Positions 209-17,323 are shown, counted from the stretch's first letter. The stretch is DNA of 25,861 bases from Verrucomicrobiota bacterium (GCA_039815375.1 JBCBZJ010000034.1:1-25861); one strand, 5' to 3'. Made by a program: numbers and translations. Notes: a model not told the origin generated them from the letters alone.

Positions 209-571
209 ATGATCTCGTATTTCAATTCGAACGATTGCGAAACACGACTTTTCATCGAGAACGAGTCGATGATCCGAACCTTGATTGACCTACCAGACTA
301 TTCCACCGAGGTAGAAATCTTTAGCGAGCCAACCAAAATTCCGGAGATTGGACGCCACGAGCACGTAGCGTACGTATCAACGATAAGGGTCAAGGAAAGA
401 AGCCCAAGCACCTGGAGCCACAAATTCAAGCCACGCCGCTCTTTCAGAAATGGCAGTTCGGGCGTCTATCTTGTCGGTGATTTCAAACAGTATTTGGTTC
501 ACATGGGAAAGACCACTGGAATCGACTACTGGACTTGCCGAAATGCGTTTTACCGCCCTCCCGTCGTGTAG
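209..571 (+). CDS. Hypothetical protein
   Basis: ORF 95..571, ATG at 209 taken as the likelier start; no recognisable motif; overlaps the opposing ORF 377..901. Confidence 0.35.
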   Translation: MISYFNSNDCETRLFIENESMIRTLIDLPDYSTEVEIFSEPTKIPEIGRHEHVAYVSTIRVKERSPSTWSHKFKPRRSFRNGSSGVYLVGDFKQYLVHMGKTTGIDYWTCRNAFYRPPVV

Positions 572-901
572 CCTACCCGATTTAAGTGTAACCCAACAAA
601 AACTTCCTCTACCCCCATCGCCGTATTTTAATTCTAGGAAAACATCAGAAAGTGTCGTGGTGTTGACACGTGCAAACACACGAGCGATCGACTGCTCTGC
701 TCCGAATGAGTCATCTATGATCAGCAACGACTCAAAACCACTGCTCCACCTAGGAATCTCCAATCCCGCTAGATCTTTGACCTCAGAAAGAAAGCTCTTG
801 CCAGTACCGCCAGCAGCCCTGCTCTTTTTAACAGCATTTGCAAAATTTTGCACCACAGACAGATAGGGGAGGGTCACTGATTGCTTCCTTAACTTTTTCA
901 C
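377..901 (-). CDS. Hypothetical protein
   Basis: GTG start with AGAGG 5 nt upstream; same strand as the T4SS cluster; contains AAGGTGKS and LLIIDD. Confidence 0.5.
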   Translation of the reverse strand: MKKLRKQSVTLPYLSVVQNFANAVKKSRAAGGTGKSFLSEVKDLAGLEIPRWSSGFESLLIIDDSFGAEQSIARVFARVNTTTLSDVFLELKYGDGGRGSFCWVTLKSGRLHDGRAVKRISASPVVDSSGLSHVNQILFEITDKIDARTAISERAAWLEFVAPGAWASFLDPYR

Positions 902-1015
902 AATAACCTCTATCTATAGCAAATTTACCTTCCCTCATCAATACATTTTTTCGGAGTATTGAAGCCAAACTCCAAAGTTGAAAAATTCACCAAACAGAAG
1001 AAACGACACCTTCAC

Positions 1016-1972
1016 TCACAGAATCTGTATGTAGAATTCAGCCCCTGACGGCAAAAAATAGATTTCGCCCGAGTTGGATTCATCATCTTCGAAGCCATCT
1101 AAATCCCAAGGGTCATCAACTGTCGGAAGTTCCAGTTCCCTCAAAATTTCGACCTGCGATTTTCTTACAGCGATAGGACGGACAATATCCTCAAGAAAGC
1201 GTTCGATCTTATGAACCTTCGGCTCATAAGTAATTTCAAGTGGTTCCATGCGAAGCCCTGTCACACCATCTAAAGCCCCATAAATCCTCTTAATCGGGTC
1301 GTAATCGCGTTCCTGTAAGTGCCCGTTTAAGGCATACCGATCTTTACCATCAATAATTACACGCCAATCCTGATCAAAGGAGGCCTGCCCACCACGCATA
1401 CTTTTGATTTGGCCAATCAATCTTGCTCGTGACGGCAGTATCGTTCTGGCATTAATCACCAGCGGCTTGACTAGCTCTCCATACACCGGCTGTTCCTTAT
1501 TTGAGAATCTTGAATCAACCGGCTTGAGCAATCGGGCATAGACCATCGTGCCAACAGGCAAATTGAGCTGCGGAATCTCCACCGCATGCTCAACTTCATC
1601 AGAAGCAACAATATGCTCAAACTTAATCAAGGCTGTTGTTGAAGCCTTCGCATCTTCGTCAGCGATTTCCCTTATTGGTGGATAAGCGACTTCAGAGCCT
1701 TCCTCAATAAACGACGGCCGATCCCGTAGTTTCTGATAGCCTTCATAGACCTTCTTGACCACAGGATCGCTCTCCTTCCTCTCAGCCTGAGATTCCACCC
1801 ATTCAACGGCAGAGGCTTTGCTTGGCTCAACTGTATTCCAACGCGGTTCAAGCGGTTCTTCAGGCGAACTCTGATGATTTAGAAAATCCCAGACCACCAC
1901 GCCAGCCAAAGCAACAGTGAGAATAATAAAGGCAATTACTTGCCCACGTTTTGTTTTGATCAGCTTATTCAT
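1016..1972 (-). CDS. TrbI/VirB10-like T4SS core protein
   Basis: ATG 1972 with GGAG upstream; N-terminal TM (VIAFIILTVALAGVVVW), charged linker, then LPVGTMVYARLLKPVDS...PVYGELVKPL...ILPSRARLIG resembling the VirB10 barrel start; last gene of the cluster. Confidence 0.7.
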   Translation of the reverse strand: MNKLIKTKRGQVIAFIILTVALAGVVVWDFLNHQSSPEEPLEPRWNTVEPSKASAVEWVESQAERKESDPVVKKVYEGYQKLRDRPSFIEEGSEVAYPPIREIADEDAKASTTALIKFEHIVASDEVEHAVEIPQLNLPVGTMVYARLLKPVDSRFSNKEQPVYGELVKPLVINARTILPSRARLIGQIKSMRGGQASFDQDWRVIIDGKDRYALNGHLQERDYDPIKRIYGALDGVTGLRMEPLEITYEPKVHKIERFLEDIVRPIAVRKSQVEILRELELPTVDDPWDLDGFEDDESNSGEIYFLPSGAEFYIQIL

Positions 1973-1985
1973 CTCAAAATCTCCA

Positions 1986-2957
1986 TTAAGATGCAAAGGC
2001 CAACACGACAACGGCACCGACTGCTAGAACTTTAACGCCATGCCCGACCCATTTGTTAAGGTTTTCGCCAATTTTTGAGCCTTTGGAAGGCCGTTGAATG
2101 GGAAGGTCTTCAGTAACCTTGAGACTGAAATCATTGAACAAATCAATGTGCCCTGGTTTGCCCTGACCATTGCCGATCAAAACGCCAACAAAGCGAAGTG
2201 GCTGCTTCGTGCGCTTCAAGTCGCGGCCTAGTTCAAAATGATTGAATGCGTAGTAGGCCTTGCCATTGATTTCCAATTGGATGTTGTGCTGCCGACTGCC
2301 TTTGCTCGCTTGAATGTCAGCTGGAAATTCCACTCGACCAACAAAAACTAAAGTGTCTTCCTTACCGAATTTAACGGCCCTTTCCAATACGTAATGATAG
2401 GAACCAACAGCTACGTTCGCATTTAGAGTGTGTGATTCACTGCCATTATAAAGCTCAGGCAATTGTTTTTTTAGGAAGGCCTCTTCCTTCGCGAGCCGGA
2501 TCAGTTCCATCATCCGCGGCTTTGATGGCAAACGCACCAAATCCTCGACATCGGATAGCTCCAACTTGGAGCTGACTTCCAGCCCAACCGTGTCCTTATC
2601 ACGAAATCGCACCACCGAAGCAGGCAGATCACTGCCTTTAAATTGGATCACATAGACCTTTCCACCCACCATGACCTGCATCAGAACACTGAAACGGCTG
2701 ACAAGCGGTTTTAGTGTGATCGTCTTGCGAGCGGCACCTACCTGATACTGCACTTGCCCTTCGCCTTCATTGACAAGGCCACTGCCGGACAGATGTTCAA
2801 TTTGATGCGGGAAGACCAGCAGCGTCTCGACAGCACGGTTTAGATCAACCTGAAGAATGTGGTTCTCTTCGAGAATCAAATCCTTTGGTGCCTTAGGCTC
2901 GTAGGCTTGGGTTAATGTCATTAGTAGTGTGAATAGAATAGTTAGTTTAATTTTCAT
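1986..2957 (-). CDS. VirB9/TraK-like exported T4SS core protein
   Basis: Signal peptide; VETLLVFPHQIEHL beta-rich N-domain; position between the VirB8-like and VirB10-like genes; 4-bp overlap with the upstream gene. Confidence 0.6.
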   Translation of the reverse strand: MKIKLTILFTLLMTLTQAYEPKAPKDLILEENHILQVDLNRAVETLLVFPHQIEHLSGSGLVNEGEGQVQYQVGAARKTITLKPLVSRFSVLMQVMVGGKVYVIQFKGSDLPASVVRFRDKDTVGLEVSSKLELSDVEDLVRLPSKPRMMELIRLAKEEAFLKKQLPELYNGSESHTLNANVAVGSYHYVLERAVKFGKEDTLVFVGRVEFPADIQASKGSRQHNIQLEINGKAYYAFNHFELGRDLKRTKQPLRFVGVLIGNGQGKPGHIDLFNDFSLKVTEDLPIQRPSKGSKIGENLNKWVGHGVKVLAVGAVVVLAFAS

Positions 2958-3550
2958 ACGGAAGGAATGGCTTTGGTTTTAAGGTTGAAGTTATAAACGA
3001 TTGTCGGGTAACGACCGTTTTGGAGCATGCTGCGGTTGAGCACGAAATGGAGTTGGCACTCAAAATCCAAAGCCTCGACGAAGATCTTATTCATGAACTC
3101 GCCTGTGCGGATGAGCTGCCCAGTCACCAGAATGAGCACAGAGTCGTTCTTCATCTTCAGCTGGCGTATTTCAGCGATACTGACCTTCTGGTGAATCGAG
3201 CGGTTCTTAAAATCGACAGCTTCACCATCAATGATCTGTTTCGCCTTAGGCAAGGCCTCTGGATGGAACAGATGCTTCAATCGGTCCTGACTATCAATCC
3301 CACCCGGCCCACGGTTGAGCAAAGTTTCGCAGGCGAGCTGCGCTTGGTCGAAGTGCAGGCCATGTGCTTCTTCGAAGGTAAAAGACTTCGGAAGGTAGAA
3401 GCAGCTCTCGTCTATAACCAGATATTCATATTGCTTCTGATCGGTAATCGATTGAATCAGGAAATAGCGTTCGGCGGTAAAGCCGATCACCGTCAATAGA
3501 TAAACCGCACAAAGAATGAGCGTCATATAATTTTTCAGTTTGTTCATCAT
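2954..3550 (-). CDS. VirB8/TrbF-like T4SS protein
   Basis: Single N-terminal TM, about 200 aa, C-terminal ILVTGQLIRTG...LNRSMLQNGRYPTIVYNF pattern; follows the VirB6-like gene. Confidence 0.65.
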   Translation of the reverse strand: MMNKLKNYMTLILCAVYLLTVIGFTAERYFLIQSITDQKQYEYLVIDESCFYLPKSFTFEEAHGLHFDQAQLACETLLNRGPGGIDSQDRLKHLFHPEALPKAKQIIDGEAVDFKNRSIHQKVSIAEIRQLKMKNDSVLILVTGQLIRTGEFMNKIFVEALDFECQLHFVLNRSMLQNGRYPTIVYNFNLKTKAIPSV

Positions 3551-3559
3551 TTCAGTGAG

Positions 3560-4597
3560 TTAGCGTGATTGATTGTAGATTGCTTCGGCCTGTTGGCTGT
3601 AATTGCCCCGTGGTGGCGTGGCTCGGCTACCAAGATAACCAGCCGCAACGCCAATAAACGCTGGTGGAAGAGTGCTTGAAGAACCTGCGGAGCTGCTTAC
3701 AAACCCAGCAGCTCCAGACGTAGCGGCAGCAGCTCCGGCCCAGCCTTTGCCGGCTCCCATCATAGATGCTGTAACTGCGCCCCCGACGGCATGGGTTCCC
3801 GCAGTCGCGATAGATGTCACAAAGTTCTTTACCAAACTGGCACCGGCATTAACGCCCGTGGAGAGCATCTTATGGATCACCAGCGGTGCTGCGATCGCGC
3901 TGAAAATGAGCCAAAGACTTAATAGCAGAACAGACCAGAAAGCATTACTGTTGAGTTCGCCTTCTGGCCCTGCACTTAATTGGATCAGACTTTGCGAAAC
4001 AACATTCGCAATTGCCCAGCCAAGCGGCCAGAAGGCCACACTGAACATTCCCATGAAAAACTTCCCTGCGACTGGACGCAGCACTTCCAGCATAAAGAAA
4101 GCCACAAACACTGGAGCAACGGCAGTGCCATAGATCAGTAAAACCTGCTGCAACCACTGAAGTAGGTAGCTAACTGCCCACGCGCACTGAGACCCGACGT
4201 ATACGAATGCGTAGGAGATGGCTTCTCCTAAACCAACATCACGGGATAGGATGATGTCCCAAAAACCAATCGGTTTATTGGCATCCTCACCACTACTCAG
4301 GATAAGCTCTGCAAAATCATGATGCAATGTGCTGGGCGATGCATCGATATGCTCGATAAAGGCATAAGCAAAACGCTGAAGATCGTTCATCAAATCAGGC
4401 AGAATTCCGATCATCAGCGCACAGACAGATACGCCAAGCAAAGCGCGTAGTATCTGCCCAGCATCGCCAAACATGCTCCAGCCGACCTTGAGGCTGAAAC
4501 CAATGAAAAGCAGAGCGATGACAATCGGTTTAGTCTGGCCGAAAAGCGTGATCGCACTGGCATAGAGTTCAGGGAGTTGAGTTTCGAGATTAGTCAT
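3560..4597 (-). CDS. VirB6/TrbL-like polytopic inner-membrane protein
   Basis: Multiple hydrophobic segments (APVFVAFFML, SVAFWPLGWAI) and a Gly/Ala/Ser-rich C-terminal tail. Confidence 0.8.
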   Translation of the reverse strand: MTNLETQLPELYASAITLFGQTKPIVIALLFIGFSLKVGWSMFGDAGQILRALLGVSVCALMIGILPDLMNDLQRFAYAFIEHIDASPSTLHHDFAELILSSGEDANKPIGFWDIILSRDVGLGEAISYAFVYVGSQCAWAVSYLLQWLQQVLLIYGTAVAPVFVAFFMLEVLRPVAGKFFMGMFSVAFWPLGWAIANVVSQSLIQLSAGPEGELNSNAFWSVLLLSLWLIFSAIAAPLVIHKMLSTGVNAGASLVKNFVTSIATAGTHAVGGAVTASMMGAGKGWAGAAAATSGAAGFVSSSAGSSSTLPPAFIGVAAGYLGSRATPPRGNYSQQAEAIYNQSR

Positions 4598-5394
4598 GGG
4601 TTGAACAGGGTTGGCCCACTTGGAAAGCGGTAGGTGTTAAGGCTTTTGCGCATTCCGACCTTCAGGGTCGCGCGTTGCTCTTGATCACGAGCTTTCTGGG
4701 CAATTTCGGTCTCAGCCTGATTTTGCAGGTGACGGGTCATGGCTGCGGAAGCTGCCAGATCAATTTCACGGGATACTTCAGCGCGCTGTGCATTTAGAGA
4801 GCTGATAACAACGGCCAGCTTCTCAACTTCACTCGCAGTCGATGCACCTTCCAGCTTACGCAAAGCCACCTGTAAATCGCGATCAATGGCATTACGCTTC
4901 TCTAGCGCTTCATTCTGAAGCTTATGATATTCCAGAAAGCCCTGTCGCGCCGCCAGATCCGGCTTATAAACTGACGTATCGCGAGCGGTCACTACTTCTC
5001 CATCCACAGTGATGTCTTTGGAGATCGGATCATATACATCCTGATCAATGAACAGGATATCATCAGAGAGTAAGCGTCTCAGCTCTTTGCTCGACTTGGA
5101 CACAGGTAGCTCACGGACAAGCTGGTATAGGTCCTTGAGTTCCTGTAACCGGATTTGGGCTGGATTTCCAAAACGATCCAAGTAGTCATCCAGCTGCGCT
5201 ATCTGCGAGGTCAGTTGCAAGATTTGCTGACGCTGGTTTTGCACCTGTGTGATTTGCTGCGCCAGATCTCGACGTGAGTTTACGATTTCCGTATAAATCG
5301 CACGAAAATCGATGACCGGATAAGCTGCCTGCACTTGTGTGCCAACGCTAAGCAAAGCAGCCAGCACAAATACGATTGGTATAATTGCTTTCAT
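4594..5394 (-). CDS. VirB5/TrbJ-like minor pilin
   Basis: Signal peptide then AYPVID and a Gln-rich coiled coil (QQITQVQNQRQQI); directly upstream of the VirB6-like gene with 4-bp overlap. Confidence 0.75.
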   Translation of the reverse strand: MKAIIPIVFVLAALLSVGTQVQAAYPVIDFRAIYTEIVNSRRDLAQQITQVQNQRQQILQLTSQIAQLDDYLDRFGNPAQIRLQELKDLYQLVRELPVSKSSKELRRLLSDDILFIDQDVYDPISKDITVDGEVVTARDTSVYKPDLAARQGFLEYHKLQNEALEKRNAIDRDLQVALRKLEGASTASEVEKLAVVISSLNAQRAEVSREIDLAASAAMTRHLQNQAETEIAQKARDQEQRATLKVGMRKSLNTYRFPSGPTLFNP

Positions 5395-5400
5395 GACGAC

Positions 5401-5715
5401 TTATTGCTCAACGAGCACTTTGATAGGAAGATGGTGCGAAGTAATCTTCACCCCCTGCTCATTCACATGGGCAGGAACCTGGATCATGTGATACTCTTCG
5501 CGGACTTGCTTGCCTGCGCCATCACTCTGGCGCTGATGCTCCTGCACCCGAATATACTGGGAGACGGCATCGTCATAGCCGCGTTGACGGAGTTTTTCAC
5601 CAATGTCTTCAACCTGACCTTCAGAATAAAGGCCAACGGTTGAGCAGGCACTATTAAACAGCAAAGGGAGCGCAATCAGCGCCCCCTTGAGTAGATGTGT
5701 GTGTGTATTTTTCAT
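5401..5715 (-). CDS. Small lipoprotein of the T4SS cluster
   Basis: Lipoprotein-type signal ending LLFNSAC; 104 aa; lies between the virB4-like and virB5-like genes. Confidence 0.7.
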   Translation of the reverse strand: MKNTHTHLLKGALIALPLLFNSACSTVGLYSEGQVEDIGEKLRQRGYDDAVSQYIRVQEHQRQSDGAGKQVREEYHMIQVPAHVNEQGVKITSHHLPIKVLVEQ

Positions 5716-5739
5716 AGGTATCGTAGCTGGTACCTATAG

Positions 5740-5766
5740 ATGCACAGAGCTAATTTGATTTATCCG
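5740..5766 (-). promoter_or_regulatory. Candidate alternative-sigma promoter CGGATAAA-N12-TGTGCAT (copy 2)
   Basis: Minus strand CGGATAAA TCAAATTAGCTC TGTGCAT; 24 nt before ATG 5715; same boxes and spacing as 8956-8982. Confidence 0.65.
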
Positions 5767-5770
5767 TCAT

Positions 5771-8251
5771 TTAAGCAGATTTTTCGACTTCCGTGTAAAT
5801 CCCTTCCAGTGGGTCATCGTAGCCTGCCAACACTCCCGCACGTTCATCATAAGCCCCGCCCGATGTAGAGGAGACATAGAGCATCTCAGGGCTTGCAATA
5901 CTGTAAGCAGTGACTACGCGGCGGCGTTCATCACTGAAGCTGCAATGGAGGAAAGGTGCCCCCTTCTCCGGCGTTGGTGCTCCAAAGCGCATAAGGTTCT
6001 GCACAGAGGCCTCCGGCAATTGGAACGCATTTTGGAGTGCGCGTGCCTCAACCTCATACTTTTGCGCAAGAAGAAGTGCCTGACCGGAATTACCCAAAAT
6101 CGAAGTAGCTAGATCCTCTGGTAGCAGTGACACTTGCTGAATCGTTGTCAGCACTGCGCAATTATACTTACGCATGCGCTCCATCATATCACGCAAGAGA
6201 GCTTTACCACCTGGAATCTGAAGAAAGGCACCGAGCTCTTCAAAAACCGCTACTTTCCCAAGTTTACGGGGTAGTTCCATAATGTAAGAGCGTACCCATT
6301 CTGTGATGACGTAACTGGCAACTTGTTGTAGCTCGGTGTCAACATCGCTGATCTTACTCAGCTCGAAATGGATCACATCAGCATTGAGTGAAACAGTCCC
6401 CTGTCCGTCAAACAGTGTGTAACCTCCTCTGTCCTTCCGCCATTTTTCAAGAAGAACAATTAGCTTAAGCAGGTCATCTCGAAAATCATCCTCGGTTTTA
6501 AGTTTGGTTTCCAGCCAGTCATGGAAATCGGCATGAGTCGGTTGTTCGTCTACTGACATCTCCTTGAAAGCTTGCTGATAGCTCACTTCATCATCCTCAG
6601 AAGTGCTGCTCCACTTATCTCCCCAGTGTTGATAAAATTGACGAACGTAACGTGCGATCAGTGCTTTGCGAGTGTTGTCCCCAGTGGCATACTGCCCCGC
6701 CATCAGAGTTAAAATTTCAGTGGCACGGCGGCAATGCTTCCAAGTCAAAGATTTGCCTTCTGTGCTGAGGTAATTCAGCGTCTCATCACCATAGGCCTCA
6801 ATCACCAGAGTTTTCACACTACCGGGAAAGGTTTTGACGTAAGTTGCATAAGAGAACCCAACATCAACAATCACTAGCTTATCCCAATGTGGTTGAGTTT
6901 GCGTCAATAGCTCCATCTGAAGGCATGATTTACCACTGCCAGTCTTGCCTGCAATGAAAGTATGGATAGGTTCACGTTCAAACAGATTAACTCCATGCAG
7001 GGCATCATTGTTGCCGTTGAACAAAGCCTGATAAGGTGTATGTGAATAGGCACTGTTCCCAGCTACAGGCAGCAAGTGAGATAGGTTGATCGATTCCGTG
7101 TAATGGCGAAATGCCTTATCAACATAGGGCGAGCCAGGCGCGCAGGCCATCAGCACATTGCGGCAGGAAGTTGGCAGTTCAACGGCTTGAGCACTGGCAC
7201 CTTGAAGCATCTGAAAGGTCGCTTGGATCGCTTCCAACTTCTTCTCTAGCTCTTCTTTCGTCGGCTCCCATACGTGCGCGTAGAATTGCAAATGAAAGGG
7301 ACGAACATCACCATTCATCAGGCGGCGAATTCGCTCACGTTTTACAGCGACAGTATTAGACAAGCTCGTCTGCTTGCTGGTTGCAACAGCACGGCTCAGC
7401 TTGGCGATTTCACGTTCTTCTTTCGCAATAACACTCTGCGGATCGACTGGCTCAATGGCCAGAACGAGTGAGTAGTTGCCGAATGGAAGATTGCACAGCG
7501 GCAAGACACAGCCAGAAGCGGTCGCCTGTGGCAATCGATTCATACCCACAAATCCATGATACTGCTCATTGCAGTAGATTGAACCGCGCCCCTTTCGTGG
7601 AATCTCGATATCATTAGTCAGACAGTTCTCCAATATGCTTTTCTCTCGATCAATCTGAACTGGCGCTACCGTCTTCCCACACTGACTAGGATCGAAGTGC
7701 TCTTTCAAACTATGACCGAAATCATCCTCATTCATCAAACGTGCATCTCCACTGGCACGTTCAAAACCACGAATGACTTCAGACAGAGAGCGACTAAGCT
7801 CTTTTTTAGCAGCGCCAATCCATTCTGCATAACGCATAGTATTACCAGATACTTCTACCTGCTTAATCAGGTAAAGCTCGGCTCTGGTTGAACGGAGATA
7901 CCCTTTATGCATAGCCTGACTAAGCCTCACGTAGTGGAAGTCTCGCTGGCGAAGACTCCACTCAGCAGACGACAAGCTCCGCGAATGTTCATAGAATTCA
8001 TTCAGCTCTGCCTTGAGATTAGTATATGAGCGAAAAATCAGCTGCATACGCATATCAGGCCCGATTGCATTATGCAGAACAACTTGTAGCTCGTTCATGA
8101 TCTGATTGAGCAGACTTGTTGGCGCATTCTCAAGGTTTGGGAAAGCTCCCAAAATACCTTGAACGATCTGAACGCTTCCGCTGGTTACATCACCATAGAT
8201 TAAAGTGTCGGCATCAAACCGTCCGTCGAGTTGCTTAAGATTCATTATCAT
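5771..8251 (-). CDS. virB4: VirB4-family conjugal transfer ATPase
   Basis: 826 aa; HTFIAGKTGSGKS Walker A, LVIVDVGFSY, VAVFEE Walker B, RKYNCAVLTTIQQ, ILGNS motifs. Confidence 0.92.
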   Translation of the reverse strand: MIMNLKQLDGRFDADTLIYGDVTSGSVQIVQGILGAFPNLENAPTSLLNQIMNELQVVLHNAIGPDMRMQLIFRSYTNLKAELNEFYEHSRSLSSAEWSLRQRDFHYVRLSQAMHKGYLRSTRAELYLIKQVEVSGNTMRYAEWIGAAKKELSRSLSEVIRGFERASGDARLMNEDDFGHSLKEHFDPSQCGKTVAPVQIDREKSILENCLTNDIEIPRKGRGSIYCNEQYHGFVGMNRLPQATASGCVLPLCNLPFGNYSLVLAIEPVDPQSVIAKEEREIAKLSRAVATSKQTSLSNTVAVKRERIRRLMNGDVRPFHLQFYAHVWEPTKEELEKKLEAIQATFQMLQGASAQAVELPTSCRNVLMACAPGSPYVDKAFRHYTESINLSHLLPVAGNSAYSHTPYQALFNGNNDALHGVNLFEREPIHTFIAGKTGSGKSCLQMELLTQTQPHWDKLVIVDVGFSYATYVKTFPGSVKTLVIEAYGDETLNYLSTEGKSLTWKHCRRATEILTLMAGQYATGDNTRKALIARYVRQFYQHWGDKWSSTSEDDEVSYQQAFKEMSVDEQPTHADFHDWLETKLKTEDDFRDDLLKLIVLLEKWRKDRGGYTLFDGQGTVSLNADVIHFELSKISDVDTELQQVASYVITEWVRSYIMELPRKLGKVAVFEELGAFLQIPGGKALLRDMMERMRKYNCAVLTTIQQVSLLPEDLATSILGNSGQALLLAQKYEVEARALQNAFQLPEASVQNLMRFGAPTPEKGAPFLHCSFSDERRRVVTAYSIASPEMLYVSSTSGGAYDERAGVLAGYDDPLEGIYTEVEKSA

Positions 8252-8576
8252 TTCCTTTCTTTTTTATGACACGTAGGAGTGGTGTTTTGGTCAGGCGAAG
8301 CACTTGAAGCTCGACCCAATCCAAGAGGTAATTGTCTGGTTTGTTGATCACTAGCCGGGTCAGGACGATAGCTGTAATGATGGGGAGGATTCCGCTAATC
8401 AGCGCACTGCTCAGCAGCGGCCATCCCTGCTCCTTGACCAGCAAGTAGAGTAAAAAAAAGCCGCCGAATAGTGCGGCGGCTTGGATGTAGATTGCTGCCC
8501 CGGTAAATGGGCCGATGCGTATCTGGCTCTCGGTGCCCTCATTCGTCGGCACCCATTCGGTGTTTTCGTCTTCCAT
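8235..8576 (-). CDS. VirB3-like membrane protein
   Basis: 113 aa, two TM segments followed by NKPDNYLLDW; overlaps the virB4 start. Confidence 0.7.
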   Translation of the reverse strand: MEDENTEWVPTNEGTESQIRIGPFTGAAIYIQAAALFGGFFLLYLLVKEQGWPLLSSALISGILPIITAIVLTRLVINKPDNYLLDWVELQVLRLTKTPLLRVIKKKGNDNES

Positions 8577-8590
8577 GGTAATGGTTCTGG

Positions 8591-8929
8591 TTAGATTTCG
8601 ATGAAGCCTTCAATTTCGATGCCACTATCGGCATCGCCGAAAAGGCTGACTACAATAACGTAAGCTGCCCCCATTAGGCCGGCAGCGCAGACTCCCATCA
8701 ATGCCAATCTAACGTCCCCTTGATTTAGCTGGAACGCAGCATACATTAGCCCAATTACAGCGAACAGAATTGAAATCAGCCGAAACATATTCAGCACGCG
8801 GGTCATAAATGCTTCAACGCCCACTTGCGCAATAATTGCGCCGTTATCGCCGAAGGCATTAAGAAAATCCAGAGCCAGATTAGGTGTAATTAAGTCATTC
8901 ATATTTATGTGATAGTTGATTGCAGACAT
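8591..8929 (-). CDS. VirB2/TrbC-like pilin
   Basis: Leader followed by two hydrophobic helices separated by FQLNQGD; first gene of the virB2-3-4 order. Confidence 0.7.
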   Translation of the reverse strand: MSAINYHINMNDLITPNLALDFLNAFGDNGAIIAQVGVEAFMTRVLNMFRLISILFAVIGLMYAAFQLNQGDVRLALMGVCAAGLMGAAYVIVVSLFGDADSGIEIEGFIEI

Positions 8930-8955
8930 TTCGTTGTGGTTGCCTGTAATCTGCT

Positions 8956-8982
8956 ATGCACATGCAGGGAGAGCTTTATCCG
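8956..8982 (-). promoter_or_regulatory. Candidate alternative-sigma promoter CGGATAAA-N12-TGTGCAT (copy 1)
   Basis: Minus strand CGGATAAA GCTCTCCCTGCA TGTGCAT; 26 nt before ATG 8929. Confidence 0.65.
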
Positions 8983-9011
8983 AAATTCTCTCCGCCAATC
9001 TCGACTTCTGT

Positions 9012-9049
9012 TACAAAGAAGCCCCGAAACAATCTGAATTCCGGGGCTT
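9012..9049 (-). terminator. Probable intrinsic terminator after the sigma-like gene
   Basis: Minus strand AAGCCCCGGAAT-TCAGATT-GTTTCGGGGCTT, 12-bp stem with two G.U pairs that form only on the minus strand, followed by CTTTGT (weak U tract). Confidence 0.55.
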
Positions 9050-9079
9050 AGTATAGCATTGGGACTGGTAGTTGCCAAA

Positions 9080-9820
9080 CTATCTGGCTGACTTGAAATA
9101 CAATTTTAATTTACCCTTCAGCGTGTTTTTTGCACGGCTTATTGCCTTCTTCGTCTCCGACTTTTCTGCCGGAGTTCCGAGGTGCTTTAATGGCGTGACA
9201 GCGCGAATTTCCTCTTTCGTCATCTCATCGTAAAACAGGTCAAGATCAATGCGCCAAACGCGAACCTCTTTATTTTTCGAATCTTCGGCTTCATAAATAA
9301 GATAATCAGCACGATCAACTACCCGAATAAAAATCCGCTCAAGCTCTGACAACGCAGAACATGAACGATTCATCACACTTGCAACTTCGCGCTCTCCTAC
9401 AACACGACGCAGTGCTTTCATGAAAGAAACATCAACAACGATTTCATCGCTATCGACTAGAGTTTCCCGGCCTACCCTCTTTCCGTATTTGATGGTAGCC
9501 CACCTGAGCTGATTACGAACACGGAACGTTAAAACTTTATCCAGAGAACCATGATCATTGATGTCTTTAGCTGTAACTCGCCCCAAAACAGGACGAAGCC
9601 CTCGCTTGATAAGTTTTGCCCGAAAATTACTATAGATTTCCTCGCGGTCCTGAAAATTGAGGCTGGGCCAGACGCAATAAATGTATGGAAGCCACAAGTC
9701 ATCTTTGACCACTTCCATGCACTCTAAAATGAAACGACCTGGTTCTTTAGGTTCATTACCGTATGGGATTTCATCATGAAAGCTTACAATATTATTTGTA
9801 GATGTATTACTTGGTTTCAT
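9080..9820 (-). CDS. Divergent ECF/sigma-70-family sigma factor-like protein
   Basis: Region 2-like QDREEIYSNFRAKLIK and TFRVRNQLRWATIKYGKR; region 4-like SALSELERIFI and ETKKAISRAKNTLKGKL. Confidence 0.65.
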   Translation of the reverse strand: MKPSNTSTNNIVSFHDEIPYGNEPKEPGRFILECMEVVKDDLWLPYIYCVWPSLNFQDREEIYSNFRAKLIKRGLRPVLGRVTAKDINDHGSLDKVLTFRVRNQLRWATIKYGKRVGRETLVDSDEIVVDVSFMKALRRVVGEREVASVMNRSCSALSELERIFIRVVDRADYLIYEAEDSKNKEVRVWRIDLDLFYDEMTKEEIRAVTPLKHLGTPAEKSETKKAISRAKNTLKGKLKLYFKSAR

Positions 9821-9957
9821 AGGGATTCTAGTGAAGACGCCCTATGATGGCAGTGTAAATCGGGCCACTAGCCCACTCGCCGCACAAGTCTCCTGATTTG
9901 CCGGAAAACATTGCCAACTCTCCTGACAATTTACCTGATAGAGTTTTCGGCCTAAAT

Positions 9958-11109
9958 ATGGACAAAGAATTCCAAGAACCTGTAGCTGTAGGTGTAGCAC
10001 TGACTGCGGAATGCGGACTTGCCGCAGTTAGGATAGGATTTAAAGAAGCACTTAAGAACCGAGGTGAGGCCATCTATTTTAATAATGTGTCCTTTGGAGA
10101 GAACAACGCAGGGACGGCATTTGCAGCATTCGCACTTTTTGCCGTATACGCTAGGATTCTCAAAGCCAATGCTCTGCCACAGAACCAAGAAAAAACTATT
10201 ATTCTAAGCGGGCTTCGCCCTTCCCCCGCGTTCAGCCTAGCTGATGTTTTGCAGCCTAAAGAGACTCTTGGGAAGAAATGGATTCAGAAGCTTGTTAGTT
10301 TAGATATCGATAAAACAGACTCCGACAAAGAAGAAAAACAGAAGGAAGCGGCACGGCGCTTCAAGACGTTTATCGACGGAACCAAATCGAACCGAAGTAA
10401 CAGGCCAAGTAAGGTCTTCCTAAAGCAAAGTGGAGTGAAATTCTATGTCTATCTCTCGCCTGACGAAGAGAAAAAAGGTGATGAGAAATTCAGAAGCATC
10501 GTTCGTATGGAGAAAGATGACATTGAAGACTATCAATTGATAGCTTCAGCCAAGAAGATTGTGAAGCTTGTCGATTCATGGAGAGAATACACGCACCCCG
10601 AAAGGTTTAGTTCGATCGCGCCCTCACAAAAAAACTCACTAAACAAAGAGGCAAAAATTGAAAGAGTTGTCTCACAAAGACATCAGTTGATATTGAATGA
10701 ATCCACACGGGGCAATGCTCCGGTCGACCAACAAAGGATTCAAGATTTCGAAGATAAGTTTCACGACTTGGCTTTTAGGTACCCTGATATTTTTGGAGAA
10801 GATTTTGTCATTGATATTTTCGGGCGGCAGAAAGTTGGCAGGAGTGCAGCACTGAGTTCGACACAGAACTTCGAGCTTTTTAAATCAATTGCCGAAACCA
10901 AGTCCCAAATACTTCCAAAGTATTTACCGATTGAGGTTATTGTTGCCCTTTCAATTGCCCTTGGGATTAGTCCGTCCGAACTTATTGAATCAGGATCTCC
11001 AGAGCAAATAGAGATTCAAGCACTGGAAGAGAAACGCCTTCTTGAAACTAAAACTGGCAAAAAATGGTCATTCAAGAAAACACTTGATTACTTATTTAAA
11101 ATACGTTAG
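9958..11109 (+). CDS. Hypothetical protein with C-terminal XRE/Cro-C1-like HTH segment
   Basis: Long ORF (TTG 9898 or ATG 9958); IEVIVALSIALGISPSELI resembles XRE helices 4-5; divergent from the sigma-like gene. Confidence 0.55.
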   Translation: MDKEFQEPVAVGVALTAECGLAAVRIGFKEALKNRGEAIYFNNVSFGENNAGTAFAAFALFAVYARILKANALPQNQEKTIILSGLRPSPAFSLADVLQPKETLGKKWIQKLVSLDIDKTDSDKEEKQKEAARRFKTFIDGTKSNRSNRPSKVFLKQSGVKFYVYLSPDEEKKGDEKFRSIVRMEKDDIEDYQLIASAKKIVKLVDSWREYTHPERFSSIAPSQKNSLNKEAKIERVVSQRHQLILNESTRGNAPVDQQRIQDFEDKFHDLAFRYPDIFGEDFVIDIFGRQKVGRSAALSSTQNFELFKSIAETKSQILPKYLPIEVIVALSIALGISPSELIESGSPEQIEIQALEEKRLLETKTGKKWSFKKTLDYLFKIR

Positions 11110-11145
11110 TATATTTTTCATAATATTTATTTATGGAGACAGCAA

Positions 11146-11613
11146 TTGCCTAAACAGTTTTTTCCGGACTTTCCCAGAGCAGACAAACAAAGAGTTAGGT
11201 CACTTTCTGACGTGGCACGTATCATGCAAGAACTTCCATGGTCAACAGAGGAAGAACAGCTAGGAATGCTCATGCTTGATTTCAAACGTCATACATGCGC
11301 ACCGCTTCTTCTTGCCGAAGGGCGCGAGGCCATCATGAATGTTTCTTACGAAGACATGTTTAAACCAGTCTTTGAGTCTGATTCTGTTGGCATATTTTTA
11401 GGCCACAATTATCCAGAAAAAACAGGTAGGAAACATCTTACTAATGATGATTTGAGACTAGCCAATGCGGCTACAGCGGTGGGAAACATGATTGGCAGGC
11501 ACATGCTAGACTACCTGGCTCTACTTCCATCAAAGGAAATTTACCCCGAAGGCTATTGTTCAGCCAAGCAATATGCTTATCAGGAGTTCGATTGGAAACG
11601 TGATTTGTCCTAG
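11146..11613 (+). CDS. RadC-like JAB domain protein with degenerate metal site
   Basis: TTG start with GGAG 7 nt upstream; EEQLGMLMLD...EG...IFLGHNYP...TNDDL...VGNMIGRHMLDYL aligns with RadC E...LD...HNHPSG...PS..D...LDH. Confidence 0.8.
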   Translation: MPKQFFPDFPRADKQRVRSLSDVARIMQELPWSTEEEQLGMLMLDFKRHTCAPLLLAEGREAIMNVSYEDMFKPVFESDSVGIFLGHNYPEKTGRKHLTNDDLRLANAATAVGNMIGRHMLDYLALLPSKEIYPEGYCSAKQYAYQEFDWKRDLS

Positions 11614-11679
11614 GATGAACCATCCCACGGAAACCGCTGATCGCATGGTGGATTTCAATAAAAAAGTGGCATACACTTC

Positions 11680-13707
11680 TCATCCAATACTGTCGACACC
11701 TTCCAAAGGTAGTTCTAAAGGACTGAGTAAGTCTTCCTTGTCATTTAGGAACTCTTTCAATTCTTCCTCGAATATGCCTAAGCCAGGAACTCCTCCTCTT
11801 TTAATCATAACGTCTAAGCTTTCAGCAAGGTAAGCACTTCCTGTAATTAATAAAACCTCATCAGATTCAGGCACATCGAAAACCATAAATACCAACGATA
11901 TTGAAGAGTTAATGATCAAAGTGAACCTACCAAGCTCGTCATCAAAATAACGGTTTGATTTCAAAAATGACCAACCATCGCGATCCTTTGAAATCTCGGC
12001 CTGCATAAGTAGTTCACGATATGAATCAGGATGTCCCAATCGGTGCCTGTTTTCCTCAATTTTTTGTTTTATATTCTTAGCGCACAAAACGAATTTCAGC
12101 TTTTTCGATTCTGTTGTTGGTAATCCAAAATTGTGCTTAATCTCGCTGGCAAAGAGTTTAAGTAGGGGATCGCTTTGCATTGTTGCTTTTAAATCACCGA
12201 TGATGTTCATTTGAACTCCTCCACCTAATACCCAAACATCGGTGTTTGGCACATCATAAAGAGCGACCACACGATTCAGCTTATCAATTAGAAATGCATA
12301 TTCACCTAATCTCTTATCAACGTATGCTGAAGAAAATAGAATTCGGTTTCCGTCCCGCTCTACCATATATTGTACCTTATTGTATTCCTGCGGAAACCAG
12401 TTAGGTTCTGAGAAGCGTTGAACTTTTTTGTTCATTTGAGCATTAATCAACGGGTCTTTCACCAACCATTTATTTACGGATTCTATATACTCAAAAGAAG
12501 GCGTGACTGTACCATCTTCCGCAAGGACCTCTTTTATCGGTGGAGTTTCACTCGCTTCATCCCGTTTTTTTGGCTGCTCTGAAGCAATAGTTTCTTCTTC
12601 GACGATCCGAACAAGAGGCGGTGCTACATAGTGGTAGATGCTGTTCTTAGTCAAAGTCACCTTATCTACGAGGCTTTCGTATCCTTCTTTCTCCAGACGA
12701 ATCTCGACTGATTTGGCGCTATGCAAGCGGCTTAGTGTTAATGGAGCAATCCCTTCAAACTCTCCGTTAACATACACTCTAACCCCTTTGTCGCTAGAAC
12801 CAATCGTCAAACCACTGGTTGGTTGTTCCTGTGCCGGGACTGGCTCTGAAGCAGGCTTCACTAGGAAGCGATCCATAATAATGTAGGCCAATAAAACACT
12901 AACCATTACAGTGAATAAAACAGCGCGCCAGTGCACGATAAACTTAGAGCGAGGATACGGGACTTTGATAACGCCGCCCTCCGCTTTGTGATATGGCTGT
13001 TGATTGTATCCATATTTTTGAGCAACATCTTCCGTCAACTGGATTGCCTCAGAAACGGCGGCACCGACATTTCTTGCTCCGTTGTCGAAAGCAGAAACCA
13101 ATGCAGCCGTAAAAAAACCATGCTTTTTCTTATCAAATGGATAAGCAACCTCTCCTGATTTACATGCAGAAACCACAATAGCATTGGCTGTCTTACTTTC
13201 GACTGTCTTGGGGCGTGACAGCGTCAGCGCCATGGACTGAACAACACTACCAATCTGAACGCTTCTAAGTCCCCCTGTAGAACGTTTTTTCTCACGGCAG
13301 CAGTCCAAAACAACGAAACTACTCTGAACGTCATTCTTGGCTAATTGCTCTGTCAGATAGTTAACATTAATGGCAGTGCCTTCCAGGTCATCCTCGCGCG
13401 AGTCACTCGCCAGCAGGTAAGGCACGTCATTATCATCCTCGGCACCATGGCCCCAAAAGCCAAAAACCAAGAGATCGAGCTTCTTGGCATTCTTGATTTT
13501 TTCCAGATGCGGCTCCAAGCTCGTCAACCGACCATGCTCGTCACCTTTTTTAGCACATGCCGCTAAAATTATCTCCGTCTTATCATCGAAACCAAAGTGC
13601 CGTTGAAGCACCTCCGAAAAAGCTTCAGCATCGCGCTCCGCATAATGCGCGGGAGGGGTATTCCCCTCATATGCTTCAATCGCTATCAGTAATGCTAATT
13701 TTCTCAT
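11680..13707 (-). CDS. Caspase-family (C14, metacaspase-like) protease - TM - PEGA - duplicated unknown domain
   Basis: ATG 13707 (MRKLALLIAIEAY...AERDAEAF); FWGHG and VLDCCR catalytic dyad; SACKSGEVA and HGFFTAAL; TM AVLFTVMVSVLLAYII; PEGA pattern LTIGSS...VYVNG...APL...LEKEGY. Confidence 0.88.
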   Translation of the reverse strand: MRKLALLIAIEAYEGNTPPAHYAERDAEAFSEVLQRHFGFDDKTEIILAACAKKGDEHGRLTSLEPHLEKIKNAKKLDLLVFGFWGHGAEDDNDVPYLLASDSREDDLEGTAINVNYLTEQLAKNDVQSSFVVLDCCREKKRSTGGLRSVQIGSVVQSMALTLSRPKTVESKTANAIVVSACKSGEVAYPFDKKKHGFFTAALVSAFDNGARNVGAAVSEAIQLTEDVAQKYGYNQQPYHKAEGGVIKVPYPRSKFIVHWRAVLFTVMVSVLLAYIIMDRFLVKPASEPVPAQEQPTSGLTIGSSDKGVRVYVNGEFEGIAPLTLSRLHSAKSVEIRLEKEGYESLVDKVTLTKNSIYHYVAPPLVRIVEEETIASEQPKKRDEASETPPIKEVLAEDGTVTPSFEYIESVNKWLVKDPLINAQMNKKVQRFSEPNWFPQEYNKVQYMVERDGNRILFSSAYVDKRLGEYAFLIDKLNRVVALYDVPNTDVWVLGGGVQMNIIGDLKATMQSDPLLKLFASEIKHNFGLPTTESKKLKFVLCAKNIKQKIEENRHRLGHPDSYRELLMQAEISKDRDGWSFLKSNRYFDDELGRFTLIINSSISLVFMVFDVPESDEVLLITGSAYLAESLDVMIKRGGVPGLGIFEEELKEFLNDKEDLLSPLELPLEGVDSIG

Positions 13708-14032
13708 ATATCTGGAAATTACGTGCGGATAAAACGTGATAAAGTGATGGGAAACAACCAAGTGCCAATCCTAAAGGATAAACCTTGATGAGGCATCACC
13801 ACGTATGCGGGGGCCCATTCGGCTGGTTTGCCCGCGAGATTGATCGCTGGGCGATCCGGGCCGCTTCCGCTAAACCTGCGCTCTGCGCACGACCTCAACC
13901 CCGGCCAGTGCCTATATAAGAGGCATGGTCGAAAATTAGCAGATAAAGCACCCCTTATAGCCGTATTAACCTAATGAACGCTCATGAGAATACTTTTTAC
14001 TCGGGCATAAGCTAATTCCAAAAAAGAACATA

Positions 14033-14230
14033 ATGAAACAGCATACTAGCGAAGAATTGATCACAATCAGCGATGTCTCAAAAAGATTAAGGCTTTCTAC
14101 ACGCACTGTATATCGACTGATCGCTTCAGGGGAATTCCCACCACCGGTCAAAATTGGTAGCGCAACCCGCTTCTATAAGAATGATTTAAACACATACCTG
14201 AATCGACTCCGCGACGAGCGTCAGGTATAA
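14033..14230 (+). CDS. AlpA-family HTH protein / excisionase
   Basis: LITISDVSKRLRLSTRTVYRLIASGEFPPPVKIGSATRF; 15 nt upstream of the integrase. Confidence 0.9.
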   Translation: MKQHTSEELITISDVSKRLRLSTRTVYRLIASGEFPPPVKIGSATRFYKNDLNTYLNRLRDERQV

Positions 14231-14245
14231 GGAAGGTAGCATCCT

Positions 14246-15600
<1,355 letters not shown>

Positions 15601-15682: not shown

Positions 15683-17323
15683 CTATTTCTTTGACCTGAC
15701 AGGCACCTTAAGAGACTGGGCCTCAAGGTTCCAGCGCGAAGAAAGCGCCGACTGCCCGACTGCGGCCGCCACCGGAGAGCCACCGGTCAAGAGGGCAATC
15801 TTTAGGTCTTTCGGGATCGCGCGTTCTCCCAAAAGTTTTTGGTAGATATCAAAGGCCATCTCAGATTCGCCGTTCTTATGCAGAAGATTGGCAATTCGGA
15901 GCGCGAGGATGTTCTCATCGCGACTAAAGCTGCTAATGTAGCGAATGAACTTCAGAACCTCGACCGCCTGCTGATTCTGACCTGATTGCTCGAAATATTT
16001 TGCAAGGCGAAAAGCGACAGCAAGCGATGGATACCGGATAAAAAACTGGCGTGCATAAGCCTCAGCTGCCTCAACGCCCTCGACGGCTTCCAATCGGTTC
16101 ATATTCCTCAGTCCCAGATATGCCGAAAATGGACTCTCAATGGACTCTTCCAATTGTTGTTCGAGCCCTTTTTTGAAGGGTCTGTAGAGTGGATCGCCAA
16201 CCGCAACTGTCTGCCAACTCAGGCTTGGATTACTTATACTGATCGCGTCACCAAAACTGCCTCCCTTGAGAAGATACTCTAAAAAGAAATGCGGACGCAC
16301 CGTAAACTCAAGATAGGGCTCATAGGTATAACCAAATGTGGCGCAGTAGCCCTGCGCGACTAATGCACCGATCCATCCTTTCGTTAACGAACGGACGGTT
16401 GGCGCGGAGAAGCTATGAAGATGATAACCGATCGCTCCCGGGGGCACCGACCAGAGCCGATCCCGCCAAGGACCATAGGCATTTGCACGATACCAACCCA
16501 CATAGATGGCAGGTGCGTCCAATCGCTGACCATAGCTGCGTAAACGCCTACTGCTTTCAAAGTCGGTATCGAAGAAAGCGGCCTTTGCCAGATCGCCTGC
16601 GGCATTAATCCACTCGTCACCTTTCTTGTGAGGGCCACCGCTATCGATGTAGGCGCGCCCCATAAGTCCCGTCTCTTCGGCTTCCAAAGTGCGATCAATC
16701 AATCCAATGACGTCATCTTTGCTTGGCCCATCTAATCGACTGATTTTGATAACCCGGTTTGCATCAGTATCAGAGACCGCCTTACCACCGAAAAAAGGAT
16801 TCGGCACGAAAGCCGTCATCGTGGTGTTCGGAGGGCCCGTCAGGAGAGCCAATTCGCTATCAACAGAGCCGCGGTTTATCTGAAATTCCTTCGGGATATT
16901 ATCCAAACCGGATTCGATAAGCTCCGGCTCGTTATTGAAACGCAAAGGCACTCCACGCACTGTCACCAGATAGCGGATACGATGCACTACAACTGAGAGC
17001 CGTTCACGCCCATAGGCATCCAACTGAGGACTCTTTACTGCACTGATCCATTCTCTTTCCAACAACTCATTTAGCAAAGGATTACTTATCGTCTCTACAT
17101 ATTCACGGATTCCAATTGTCTCCGCTTTCGGCATCTTAAGGCCGATGATGTTTTCAGAAGGTATGCCCCTTCGTTTCGCATAATAATCTCCTATTGCAAC
17201 AGATTCGGGATCGCTACTATTGACGAGGACTACCACTGATTCGGCATCTGGATCGCTACTCACCGCAGCGGACAAAGCTATCCCTTGAAATAGCAAAAGA
17301 ATAGAGAAAAAAACCAGTTTCAT
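15683..17323 (-). CDS. TIGR03790-family exported protein with TPR-like C-terminus
   Basis: Signal peptide; VLVNSSDPESVAIGDYYAKRRGIP, SVDSELALL, SRLDGPS, HLHSFSA, GYTYEPYL, LSWQTVAVGDPLYRPF. Confidence 0.85.
   Translation of the reverse strand: MKLVFFSILLLFQGIALSAAVSSDPDAESVVVLVNSSDPESVAIGDYYAKRRGIPSENIIGLKMPKAETIGIREYVETISNPLLNELLEREWISAVKSPQLDAYGRERLSVVVHRIRYLVTVRGVPLRFNNEPELIESGLDNIPKEFQINRGSVDSELALLTGPPNTTMTAFVPNPFFGGKAVSDTDANRVIKISRLDGPSKDDVIGLIDRTLEAEETGLMGRAYIDSGGPHKKGDEWINAAGDLAKAAFFDTDFESSRRLRSYGQRLDAPAIYVGWYRANAYGPWRDRLWSVPPGAIGYHLHSFSAPTVRSLTKGWIGALVAQGYCATFGYTYEPYLEFTVRPHFFLEYLLKGGSFGDAISISNPSLSWQTVAVGDPLYRPFKKGLEQQLEESIESPFSAYLGLRNMNRLEAVEGVEAAEAYARQFFIRYPSLAVAFRLAKYFEQSGQNQQAVEVLKFIRYISSFSRDENILALRIANLLHKNGESEMAFDIYQKLLGERAIPKDLKIALLTGGSPVAAAVGQSALSSRWNLEAQSLKVPVRSKK

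Follow-up and report, generated by a model that had tools for sequence, protein, structure and literature searches.

The stretch of 25,861 nucleotides (nt) analysed here, hereafter the window, is a whole contig (G000:C19; JBCBZJ010000034.1:1-25861 of GCA_039815375.1) from a marine Verrucomicrobiota genome, and its positions 1-15600 are part of an integrative conjugative element (ICE) that sits in a tRNA-Asn gene. Our data reveal three new components of this element: an unrecognised family of sigma-like factors, a new partner domain, whose gene is divergent to the sigma-like gene, and a defined promoter-like motif. The sigma-like factor likely reads this motif and drives the conjugation regulon of the element, a conclusion that we draw because of the distribution of the motif. 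A sequence-only reading of the same DNA had placed four genes between the type IV secretion system (T4SS) and the genes for excision and integration, and had joined them into a signalling cascade in which a membrane caspase acts on a repressor or anti-sigma protein and so releases a sigma factor for conjugation. The placement is borne out by annotation: the T4SS operon occupies 1016-8929 on the minus strand, and the excisionase-like gene xis (14033-14230) and the tyrosine integrase gene int (14246-15589) follow on the plus strand.

The window was compared with four related elements, one of which (L048) comes from metagenomes and the others from genomes. L023 (G461:C87), the closest relative, belongs to a metagenome-assembled genome (MAG) labelled Opitutales, and the same MAG contains L044 (G461:C41); L027 belongs to genome G436. 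More distant T4SS loci (VirB4 about 28% identical; L045, L046 and others) were left out as too remote.

A divergent sigma-like family and a motif before the conjugation operons

The first of the four genes (9080-9820, minus strand) encodes a protein of 246 amino acids (aa) that has few relatives. A word-based search of 5.8 billion proteins returned just two close ones (82% and 80%), and exhaustive HMMER over 1.84 billion representatives added three more (44%, 38% and 36%); an additional HMMER hit, P0008, was discarded as a repetitive, spurious match. The resemblance of this protein to sigma factors lies in fold and profile. An AlphaFold2 (AF2) model built from six sequences reached a predicted local distance difference test score (pLDDT) of 65, and when it was compared with 48,161 chains by VIA-align, 14 of the 15 best rows were members of the sigma family, mostly sigma-2 domains of extracytoplasmic function (ECF) sigmas or of PhyR. 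The best row was SigR (1h3l_B), with Z 7.5 and a root-mean-square deviation (rmsd) of 2.4 over 77 of 78 residues. The sigma-family rows together span Z 5.8-7.5 and rmsd 2.4-4.2 (one full-length row has rmsd 15.9) and concern model residues about 20-121, a support for the sigma-2 fold that has to be read with the modest Z values and the pLDDT of 65 in mind.

At the profile level, an eight-sequence alignment of the family was compared by hhalign with 12 bona fide ECF sigmas of the source genome, picked with PF04542, and matched them at 87.5% (E 3.6e-6), colinearly from region 2 to region 4.2, against 0.8% in a control comparison with HTH_3 domains. Inside this colinear match, residues about 155-242 align with ECF region 4; full-length structural rows have an rmsd of 15-16, and the AF2 model contains a beta-hairpin insertion at 175-191. 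ESM Atlas gave a weak Sigma70_r2 lead (0.93).

Several results weigh against the assignment. The protein has no match in Pfam, NCBIfam, PHROGs or PADLOC, nor among PDB sequences, and none of seven family members matched Pfam at E<=10. The curated models Sigma70_r2, Sigma70_r4 and Sigma70_ECF all fail to recognise it, and a PF04542 scan of the source genome that found 15 other genes did not have the 246-aa gene among them. Foldseek returned nothing at E<=1e-3, though ECF sigmas crowd its top rows, and with the smaller, six-sequence alignment hhalign matched the same ECF sigmas at just 12.9% (E 0.0022). Because of the sigma-2 fold matches and the hhalign profile match we nevertheless accept the protein as sigma-like, and as what appears to be a very divergent member of the ECF type that curated models miss. 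The term 'sigma-like' of the sequence-only reading thus stands on fold and profile and finds no echo in the sequence and family databases.

In the window and in L023, L027 and L044, the sigma-like gene shares the strand of the VirB2-like gene and immediately precedes it. The L044 protein (L044:11974-12939, G461:C41) has a tandem duplication of its region-2-like part, with DAEDI[YF] in each copy, followed by a single region-4-like part. A G+C-rich hairpin follows the stop codon of the sigma-like gene in three elements (window 9015-9078, minus strand; L023:7292-7340; L027:10017-10082) and may act as a terminator or belong to the leader of the T4SS operon.

When the sequences that precede the VirB2-like genes were compared between the window, L023 and L048, a common bipartite element emerged, GGATA(A/G)-N16-G(C/A)ATA(A/G), and scans were made with the slightly looser form GGATAR-N16-GCAT. 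An 11-mer common to the window and L048 was not enriched by itself when two mismatches were allowed, and is informative only within the bipartite motif. The window contains two sites of the scan pattern, both upstream of T4SS genes, where 0.08 are expected, and none of 100 shuffles reached two. Site 1 (GGATAA-N16-GCATAG, 8954-8981, minus strand) lies 25 nt upstream of the VirB2-like start codon, and site 2 (GGATAA-N16-GCAT, 5740-5765, minus strand) lies in the 55-nt gap between VirB4 and a 104-aa gene. Two further sites are present in the half of the ICE that was assembled on contig C9, one immediately ahead of the TrwC relaxase gene and one ahead of an operon for a ParA-like protein and the coupling protein. 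Because the pattern came from the T4SS sites, the C9 sites, which were not used to define it, provide a fair test: 0.055 were expected, and two or more would arise with a Poisson probability of about 0.0015. Across both strands of the 3.56-Mb genome there are 13 sites, four of them inside the ICE of about 33 kb, and these four all face conjugation operons (T4SS, relaxase, coupling protein). The motif of site 1 is present at the syntenic place in L023 and L048; downstream of VirB4, L023 and L048 again have syntenic sites, and L027 has a weaker GGAAAA-N15-GCATAA.

The motif is unlike the sigma-70 consensus, and its distribution is what the regulon of an element-specific sigma would look like, with the four sites as candidate targets. 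Of the cascade proposed earlier, the half that leads from the sigma factor to conjugation is therefore the better founded: the sigma-like gene lies upstream of the T4SS in three of the four relatives (the fourth contig ends first) and the motif precedes four conjugation operons, while the reading of the motif by the sigma-like factor itself is what we infer. Two observations weigh against such a regulon. The motif is not present before the sigma-like, 383-aa, caspase or xis genes, and a sigma70-like match (TTGGCA-17-TATACT with TG, 10/12) occurs just before the window hairpin, upstream of the T4SS operon, so that both this match and the hairpin are located between the stop codon of the sigma-like gene and site 1.

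The partner protein and the genes between it and the integrase

Divergently from the sigma-like gene, the window encodes a 383-aa protein of a new family (9958-11109, plus strand; a longer form from a TTG start at 9898 is possible), composed of an N-domain (about residues 1-135), a variable middle and a helical tail. Word-based searches return only the protein itself, and ESM Atlas nothing; its AF2 model (pLDDT 56) has no Foldseek match at E<=1e-3, and its VIA-align rows are all of an unspecific helical kind that concerns the tail (best Z 5.4), with the N-domain barely covered. By tblastn, the N-domain of about 135 residues was found in L027, L044 and L048. Its gene and the sigma-like gene are divergent in the first two of these, and in L048 its gene immediately precedes the T4SS operon; the L044 and L048 forms are fusions with NACHT-HEAT. 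One helix of the N-domain is conserved and strongly hydrophobic.

From its position alone, the 383-aa family is a candidate gatekeeper that may control the sigma-like factor or its promoters, a proposal to which we give an even chance. The role of repressor or anti-sigma that the sequence-only reading had assigned to the protein is favoured by synteny, with the N-domain in three of the four relatives and in two of them divergent from the sigma-like gene. Other evidence weighs against it. The 'XRE tail' of that reading is a resemblance by eye only and is not confirmed: no helix-turn-helix (HTH) family of Pfam matches the protein at E<=10, hhalign of three tails against five HTH_3 domains of the source genome gave 0.5% (E 0.11), and the fold searches returned no HTH. 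With a single Cys, the protein is also without the zinc anti-sigma motif (HxxxCxxC), and its model resembles no known fold. Furthermore, the closest relative, L023, lacks the N-domain, and the 295-aa protein that it encodes instead is only weakly like the 383-aa protein (pairwise E 0.064).

The sigma-like gene and its divergent partner at the head of the T4SS operon form the conserved core of these elements, and the space between partner and integrase varies. In the window, the 383-aa gene is followed by a gene for a degenerate JAB protein and a convergent gene for a C14 caspase, and then by xis, int and the tRNA-Asn gene. L023, whose nine T4SS genes are colinear with those of the window (42-58% identity) and whose sigma-like protein is 42% identical, has the divergent 295-aa gene, an intact RadC JAB gene 3 nt downstream of it and, on the same strand, the gene of a 1313-aa TPR-CHAT protein in which His and Cys look intact, before the contig ends. 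L027, likewise colinear over the nine T4SS genes (29-51% identity), has a weakly related sigma-like protein (profile E 6.4e-5), a divergent 358-aa protein with the N-domain and, 12 nt downstream, at the position of the JAB and caspase genes of the window, a 459-aa protein with the motif HEFSH (L027:11920-13299, G436:C15) that matches no family even at E<=10; xis, int and a tRNA-Val gene follow. In L044, the sigma-like protein with the duplicated region-2-like part is accompanied by a divergent 1222-aa open reading frame (ORF) of N-domain-NACHT-HEAT architecture and nothing else, and int lies beside the tmRNA gene. In L048, an N-domain-NACHT-HEAT gene stands directly upstream of the T4SS on the same strand, and neither a sigma-like gene nor further genes of this kind were seen within the contig, which ends there. 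Among the four relatives, the sigma-like gene is thus present in three, the N-domain in three, RadC in one, a clan-CD protease in one (CHAT) and a C14 caspase in none.

The space between partner and integrase contains only protease- or sensor-type genes, namely the C14 caspase, the TPR-CHAT protein and the HExxH protein, with nothing extra in L044. Whether relatives that keep the sigma-like gene and the T4SS have an unrelated gene in the place of the caspase receives a mixed answer from the three cases at hand (n=3): L023 has another, non-homologous clan-CD protease, L027 an unrelated HExxH protein, and L044 nothing but the fused NACHT-HEAT.

These arrangements allow a different view of the N-domain, as an effector that either NACHT oligomerisation or cleavage (by the caspase, a CHAT protease or the HExxH protein) would activate, similar to bacterial defence systems of the gasdermin or NOD-like receptor (NLR) type, within a cell-death or exclusion device that the element carries. 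The N-domain does form the N-terminus of the NACHT-HEAT proteins of L044 and L048, the end at which bacterial NLR-like proteins usually bear their effector, protease genes adjoin the stand-alone forms, and the conserved hydrophobic helix fits the same idea. However, the N-domain keeps a fixed place beside the sigma-like gene and the T4SS although the T4SS proteins are only 29-58% identical, which suits a regulator better than fast-turnover defence cargo; it has no fold or family match to known effectors, and L023 possesses a CHAT protease without any N-domain. We consider this explanation improbable.

The third of the four genes of the window encodes a RadC-like JAB protein of 155 aa (11146-11613, plus strand; Pfam RadC E 8.7e-9, 35.8 bits against a cut-off of 22.1) and begins 36 nt downstream of the 383-aa gene. 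Its metal motif reads HNY...TNDD, compared with HNH...SPAD in the L023 homologue, and the exchange of HNH for HNY confirms the earlier description of this JAB domain as degenerate. In ICEBs1, a regulator gene and then a putative hydrolase gene (immR, immA) lie next to int, at the end of the element, and divergent from the transfer genes, a layout to which that of the window is alike. It may accordingly be asked whether the gene just downstream of each 383-aa-type gene encodes the enzyme that inactivates its product (the RadC JAB in the window and L023, the HExxH protein in L027), with the caspase uninvolved. The downstream gene is indeed on the same strand at a short distance in all three elements (36 nt in the window, 3 nt in L023 and 12 nt in L027), JAB is a metalloprotease fold, the L027 protein has its HEFSH motif, and the L027 order of partner, HExxH protein, xis and int recalls immR-immA-int of ICEBs1. 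In contrast, the window JAB has lost a zinc ligand (HNY), and neither Peptidase_M78 nor HTH_3 was matched in the window, L023 or L027, the Peptidase_M78/ImmA model missing the L027 protein even at E<=10. The ICE of the window moreover uses a sigma-like activator, a further difference from ImmR/ImmA. By the tests run, the locus is not of the ImmR/ImmA family, and we regard a pair of this kind as the least probable of the explanations weighed here. RadC domains are common in conjugative elements, where nucleic-acid processing has been proposed for them, and JAB domains of the RadC type are thought not to be peptidases (PMC5512222), which likewise speaks against an inactivating enzyme.

The fourth gene, on the minus strand (11680-13707 from an ATG; possible TTG start at 13761), encodes a membrane orthocaspase with an N-terminal C14 domain, one transmembrane (TM) helix, a PEGA domain and a duplicated domain. 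Peptidase_C14 matches residues 20-259 (numbered from the TTG) with 63.7 bits against a cut-off of 21.4, and PEGA matches residues 316-376 with 46.1 bits. The His-Cys dyad is intact (GHG 104-106, DCC 153-155), the catalytic pair being His105/Cys155 from TTG 13761 and His87/Cys137 from ATG 13707; codon 13297-13299, which the sequence-only reading had singled out as that of the catalytic Cys, is Cys155 in the TTG numbering. With a single hydrophobic segment at about 273-302, the architecture caspase-TM-PEGA that had been read from the sequence is correct. The protein has no N-terminal signal peptide, and more basic residues precede the TM helix than follow it; according to the predicted topology, PEGA and the duplicated domain lie outside and the caspase domain is cytoplasmic. 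The duplication concerns about 110 aa within the last 300 or so residues (local alignment score 89, against 28 +/- 5 for shuffled sequences), and the duplicated domain matches no Pfam family.

Taken together, these parts suggest the following mechanism. The sigma-like factor would turn on the four conjugation operons via the GGATAA-N16-GCAT promoter-like sites, the divergently encoded 383-aa protein would be its gatekeeper, and the membrane caspase would sense an outside cue and cleave the 383-aa protein or a partner of it, lifting the block. The input device would be interchangeable among the relatives: TPR-CHAT in L023, the HExxH protein in L027, and NACHT-HEAT, fused to the N-domain itself, in L044 and L048. 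We tentatively regard this three-part account of sigma-like activator, 383-aa gatekeeper and interchangeable protease inputs as the best single explanation, if one that falls somewhat short of an even chance. A doubtful step in it is the one assigned to the caspase, namely to answer an outside cue by cutting the 383-aa protein or a partner. The caspase is only possibly the trigger, because relatives carry other protease or sensor genes in its place.

The strong rival to a caspase trigger is that only the sigma-like and 383-aa proteins are ICE regulators, and that the caspase, and probably the JAB protein too, are independent cargo. The caspase would then be a membrane orthocaspase of a general kind that serves in envelope surveillance, defence or abortive infection and lies by chance in the variable region beside the integrase gene. 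Mobile elements typically carry genes of the caspase, CHAT and NACHT types as defence cargo. In the window, the caspase gene is transcribed towards the 383-aa-JAB pair and stands outside their operon, none of the four relatives has a C14 caspase, and full-length relatives of the protein occur in none of 400 other genomes of the phylum. The chromosome of the source genome itself encodes a 925-aa paralogue with caspase, TM, CarboxypepD_reg, PEGA and FGE-sulfatase parts (G000:C54:23003-25780; L052:7004-9781, minus strand), among transporter and pyrimidine genes and without sigma-like, 383-aa or JAB partners, and caspase-TM-LRR and caspase-FGE-sulfatase proteins are found in other Verrucomicrobiota. 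The weak match of the window caspase to the PADLOC 'caspase' model (E 2.1e-6), its match to the NCBIfam model for caspases of the EACC1-associated type (NF047832; 66.5 bits, below the 140-bit cut-off) and the frequency of RadC domains in conjugative elements point in the same direction. All this weighs against the proposed mechanism, as do the presence of CHAT without N-domain in L023 and the thin statistics of a synteny drawn from five elements, two of them from one MAG.

On the other hand, the slot is restricted to protease- or sensor-type genes in every element seen, L023 has another clan-CD protease beside its RadC gene at the same place, and the G+C content of the caspase gene (0.436) is as low as that of the sigma-like (0.429) and 383-aa genes (0.424; all four genes 0.42-0.44), compared with 0.485 in the T4SS. 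The partner domain is physically fused to NACHT-HEAT in two elements, and a STAND (signal transduction ATPase with numerous domains) sensor that forms one protein with the N-domain of the partner cannot be set aside as cargo that merely lies nearby. Independent cargo is thus possible, with the balance leaning to doubt, and we retain the account of activator, gatekeeper and interchangeable inputs as the preferred one.

Beside the chromosomal paralogue of the caspase there is a gene for a 646-aa DUF11/CARDB surface protein, amid TRAP transporter, SIR2 and pyrimidine genes.

Boundaries, variants and rarity of the element

The ICE is spread over three contigs of the assembly (C19, C5 and C9). Its end in the window is marked by the tRNA-Asn (GTT) gene at 15526-15600 (minus strand; ARAGORN and Rfam), the right attachment site, which overlaps the 3' end of the integrase gene. 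An exact 31-nt copy of window 15523-15553, the 3' part of the tRNA gene, is located at G000:C5:1135-1165 and is likely the left attachment site. The integrase (Pfam Phage_integrase E 2.3e-22) is 41% identical to that of L027, and the xis product is an HTH_17 protein (Pfam E 3.7e-13). The T4SS (mating-pair formation) operon, in which VirB4/TraC/CD1110 matches were obtained with Pfam and NCBIfam, comprises nine genes, all on the minus strand: a VirB2-like gene (8591-8929), a VirB3-like gene (8235-8576), the gene of a VirB4-like ATPase (5771-8251) and six further ORFs after it.

The remainder of the ICE corresponds to about 16.5-34.3 kb of contig C9 (G000:C9 about 16500-34292) and encodes NikA/MobC-like, TrwC relaxase, PIN, ArdA, N6 methylase, ParB-like and ParA-like proteins and a coupling protein of the VirD4/TraG type. 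The final 60 nt of C9 repeat window 94-153, which suggests a branch point of the assembly or the presence of two variants. Next to the ICE half, C9 (1746-8000 and 9787-16304) carries a 2084-aa RHS-repeat protein with a C-terminal Tox-SHH nuclease-toxin domain, two short integrase-like ORFs and a full phage-type integrase; this region may be a second island that abuts the ICE. On the other side, housekeeping genes begin at 15683 of the window, and the chromosomal neighbours include a TIGR03790-family protein (15683-17323, E 5e-85) and a 464-aa Peptidase_C39_2 protein (23870-25264).

A second sequencing run of the same study, whose contigs are not independent of the window assembly, contains low-depth contigs that diverge by about 4-9% over pieces of the T4SS and integrase genes (5222-5755, 14482-15087). 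Over pieces of the sigma-like, 383-aa and caspase genes (8986-9242, 10103-10408, 12684-12937) the same contigs diverge by just 0-1.3%, a pattern that hints at a mosaic variant of the ICE.

The ICE family is rare. The sigma-like protein occurs in none of 400 other genomes sampled across the phylum, and close relatives of the T4SS protein (E<=1e-30) in none of 390 other genomes of the phylum. In a sample of 401 genomes of the order, close relatives of the T4SS protein are found in two genomes beyond that of the window, and a remote T4SS in eight. Scans of viral contigs with the VirB4 and partner alignments gave no matches, nor did an initial metagenome scan with the sigma-like alignment.

Relation to known systems and significance

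In ICEs outside the model groups, the decision to transfer is mostly unknown, and we know of no study of ICE transfer control in Verrucomicrobiota, a point for which no dedicated search was made. A limited literature search (caspase with PEGA; ICE with sigma or anti-sigma and protease) did not find the present arrangement in print. The nearest parallel for the sigma-like factor is found in Tn916, which encodes a split sigma, Sig7-8, that activates the main promoter of the element and is needed for its activation and for conjugation (bioRxiv 10.64898/2026.10.01.756105, Gomberg and Grossman). The sigma-like factor would likewise be an alternative sigma encoded by an ICE. Sig7-8, however, consists of two subunits, belongs to a Gram-positive ICE and is autoactivating, and no protease or partner gate is described for it; the ICE of the window has one polypeptide without family match, four separate promoter-like sites, no motif before its own sigma-like gene, and a divergent partner.

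Several systems are known in which a protease is linked to a sigma factor. In DdvA/DdvS of Myxococcus xanthus, an ECF sigma is held by a transmembrane anti-sigma with a periplasmic TPR-CHAT part, and signal-induced proteolysis is proposed to free the sigma (PMC11506125). DdvA combines a cytoplasmic anti-sigma, with a zinc three-helix bundle, and a periplasmic CHAT in one protein, and its regulon is an island with CRISPR and cyclic-oligonucleotide-based antiphage signalling (CBASS) genes. In the window, by contrast, the predicted topology is reversed (caspase inside, sensor outside), the gatekeeper candidate is a soluble protein of its own that has one Cys, and conjugation is the candidate regulon. 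The type III-E Craspase (TPR-CHAT/Csx29) cleaves Csx30, which is tied to RpoE, and CalpL-CalpT-CalpS is a set of SAVED-Lon protease, anti-sigma and ECF-like sigma. In both, a protease and a sigma-tied partner turn a signal into transcription, and L023 too has a large TPR-CHAT; they differ in being activated by CRISPR RNA targeting or cyclic oligoadenylate, whereas the output of the window ICE would be conjugation. No resemblance in sequence to Csx30 or CalpT was seen, though no test was aimed at it. No CRISPR, SAVED, Lon or gRAMP parts were found among the window ORFs or in the C9 half of the ICE. The locus hence resembles the protease-sigma systems at most by analogy. The caspase itself shares with membrane orthocaspases (caspase-FGE-sulfatase proteins; the G000:C54 paralogue) an N-terminal C14 domain with a His-Cys dyad, one TM helix and PEGA, and differs from them in its duplicated C-terminal domain of about 110 aa without Pfam family.

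The finding offers a testable regulon, in which one sigma-like gene is matched by four promoter-like sites over the T4SS, relaxase and coupling-protein operons, and a new family of partner proteins, joined to a STAND NTPase in two of the elements. Were the caspase, CHAT and NACHT modules to be cargo, what would remain is a new ICE family that has a divergent sigma, similar in this to Tn916 with its Sig7-8. Alternatively, and in our view unlikely in its full extent, this is an ICE family in which transfer is gated by interchangeable immune-type modules that act on one partner domain restraining a divergent sigma, so that immune and cell-death machinery would have been rewired to time the transfer of DNA. 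Should these modules indeed be inputs, the release of a sigma by protease- or NLR-type signalling would have a second use besides phage defence as in DdvA/DdvS, Craspase and CalpLTS, and a membrane orthocaspase, a member of a class whose functions are largely unknown, would gain a physiological role.

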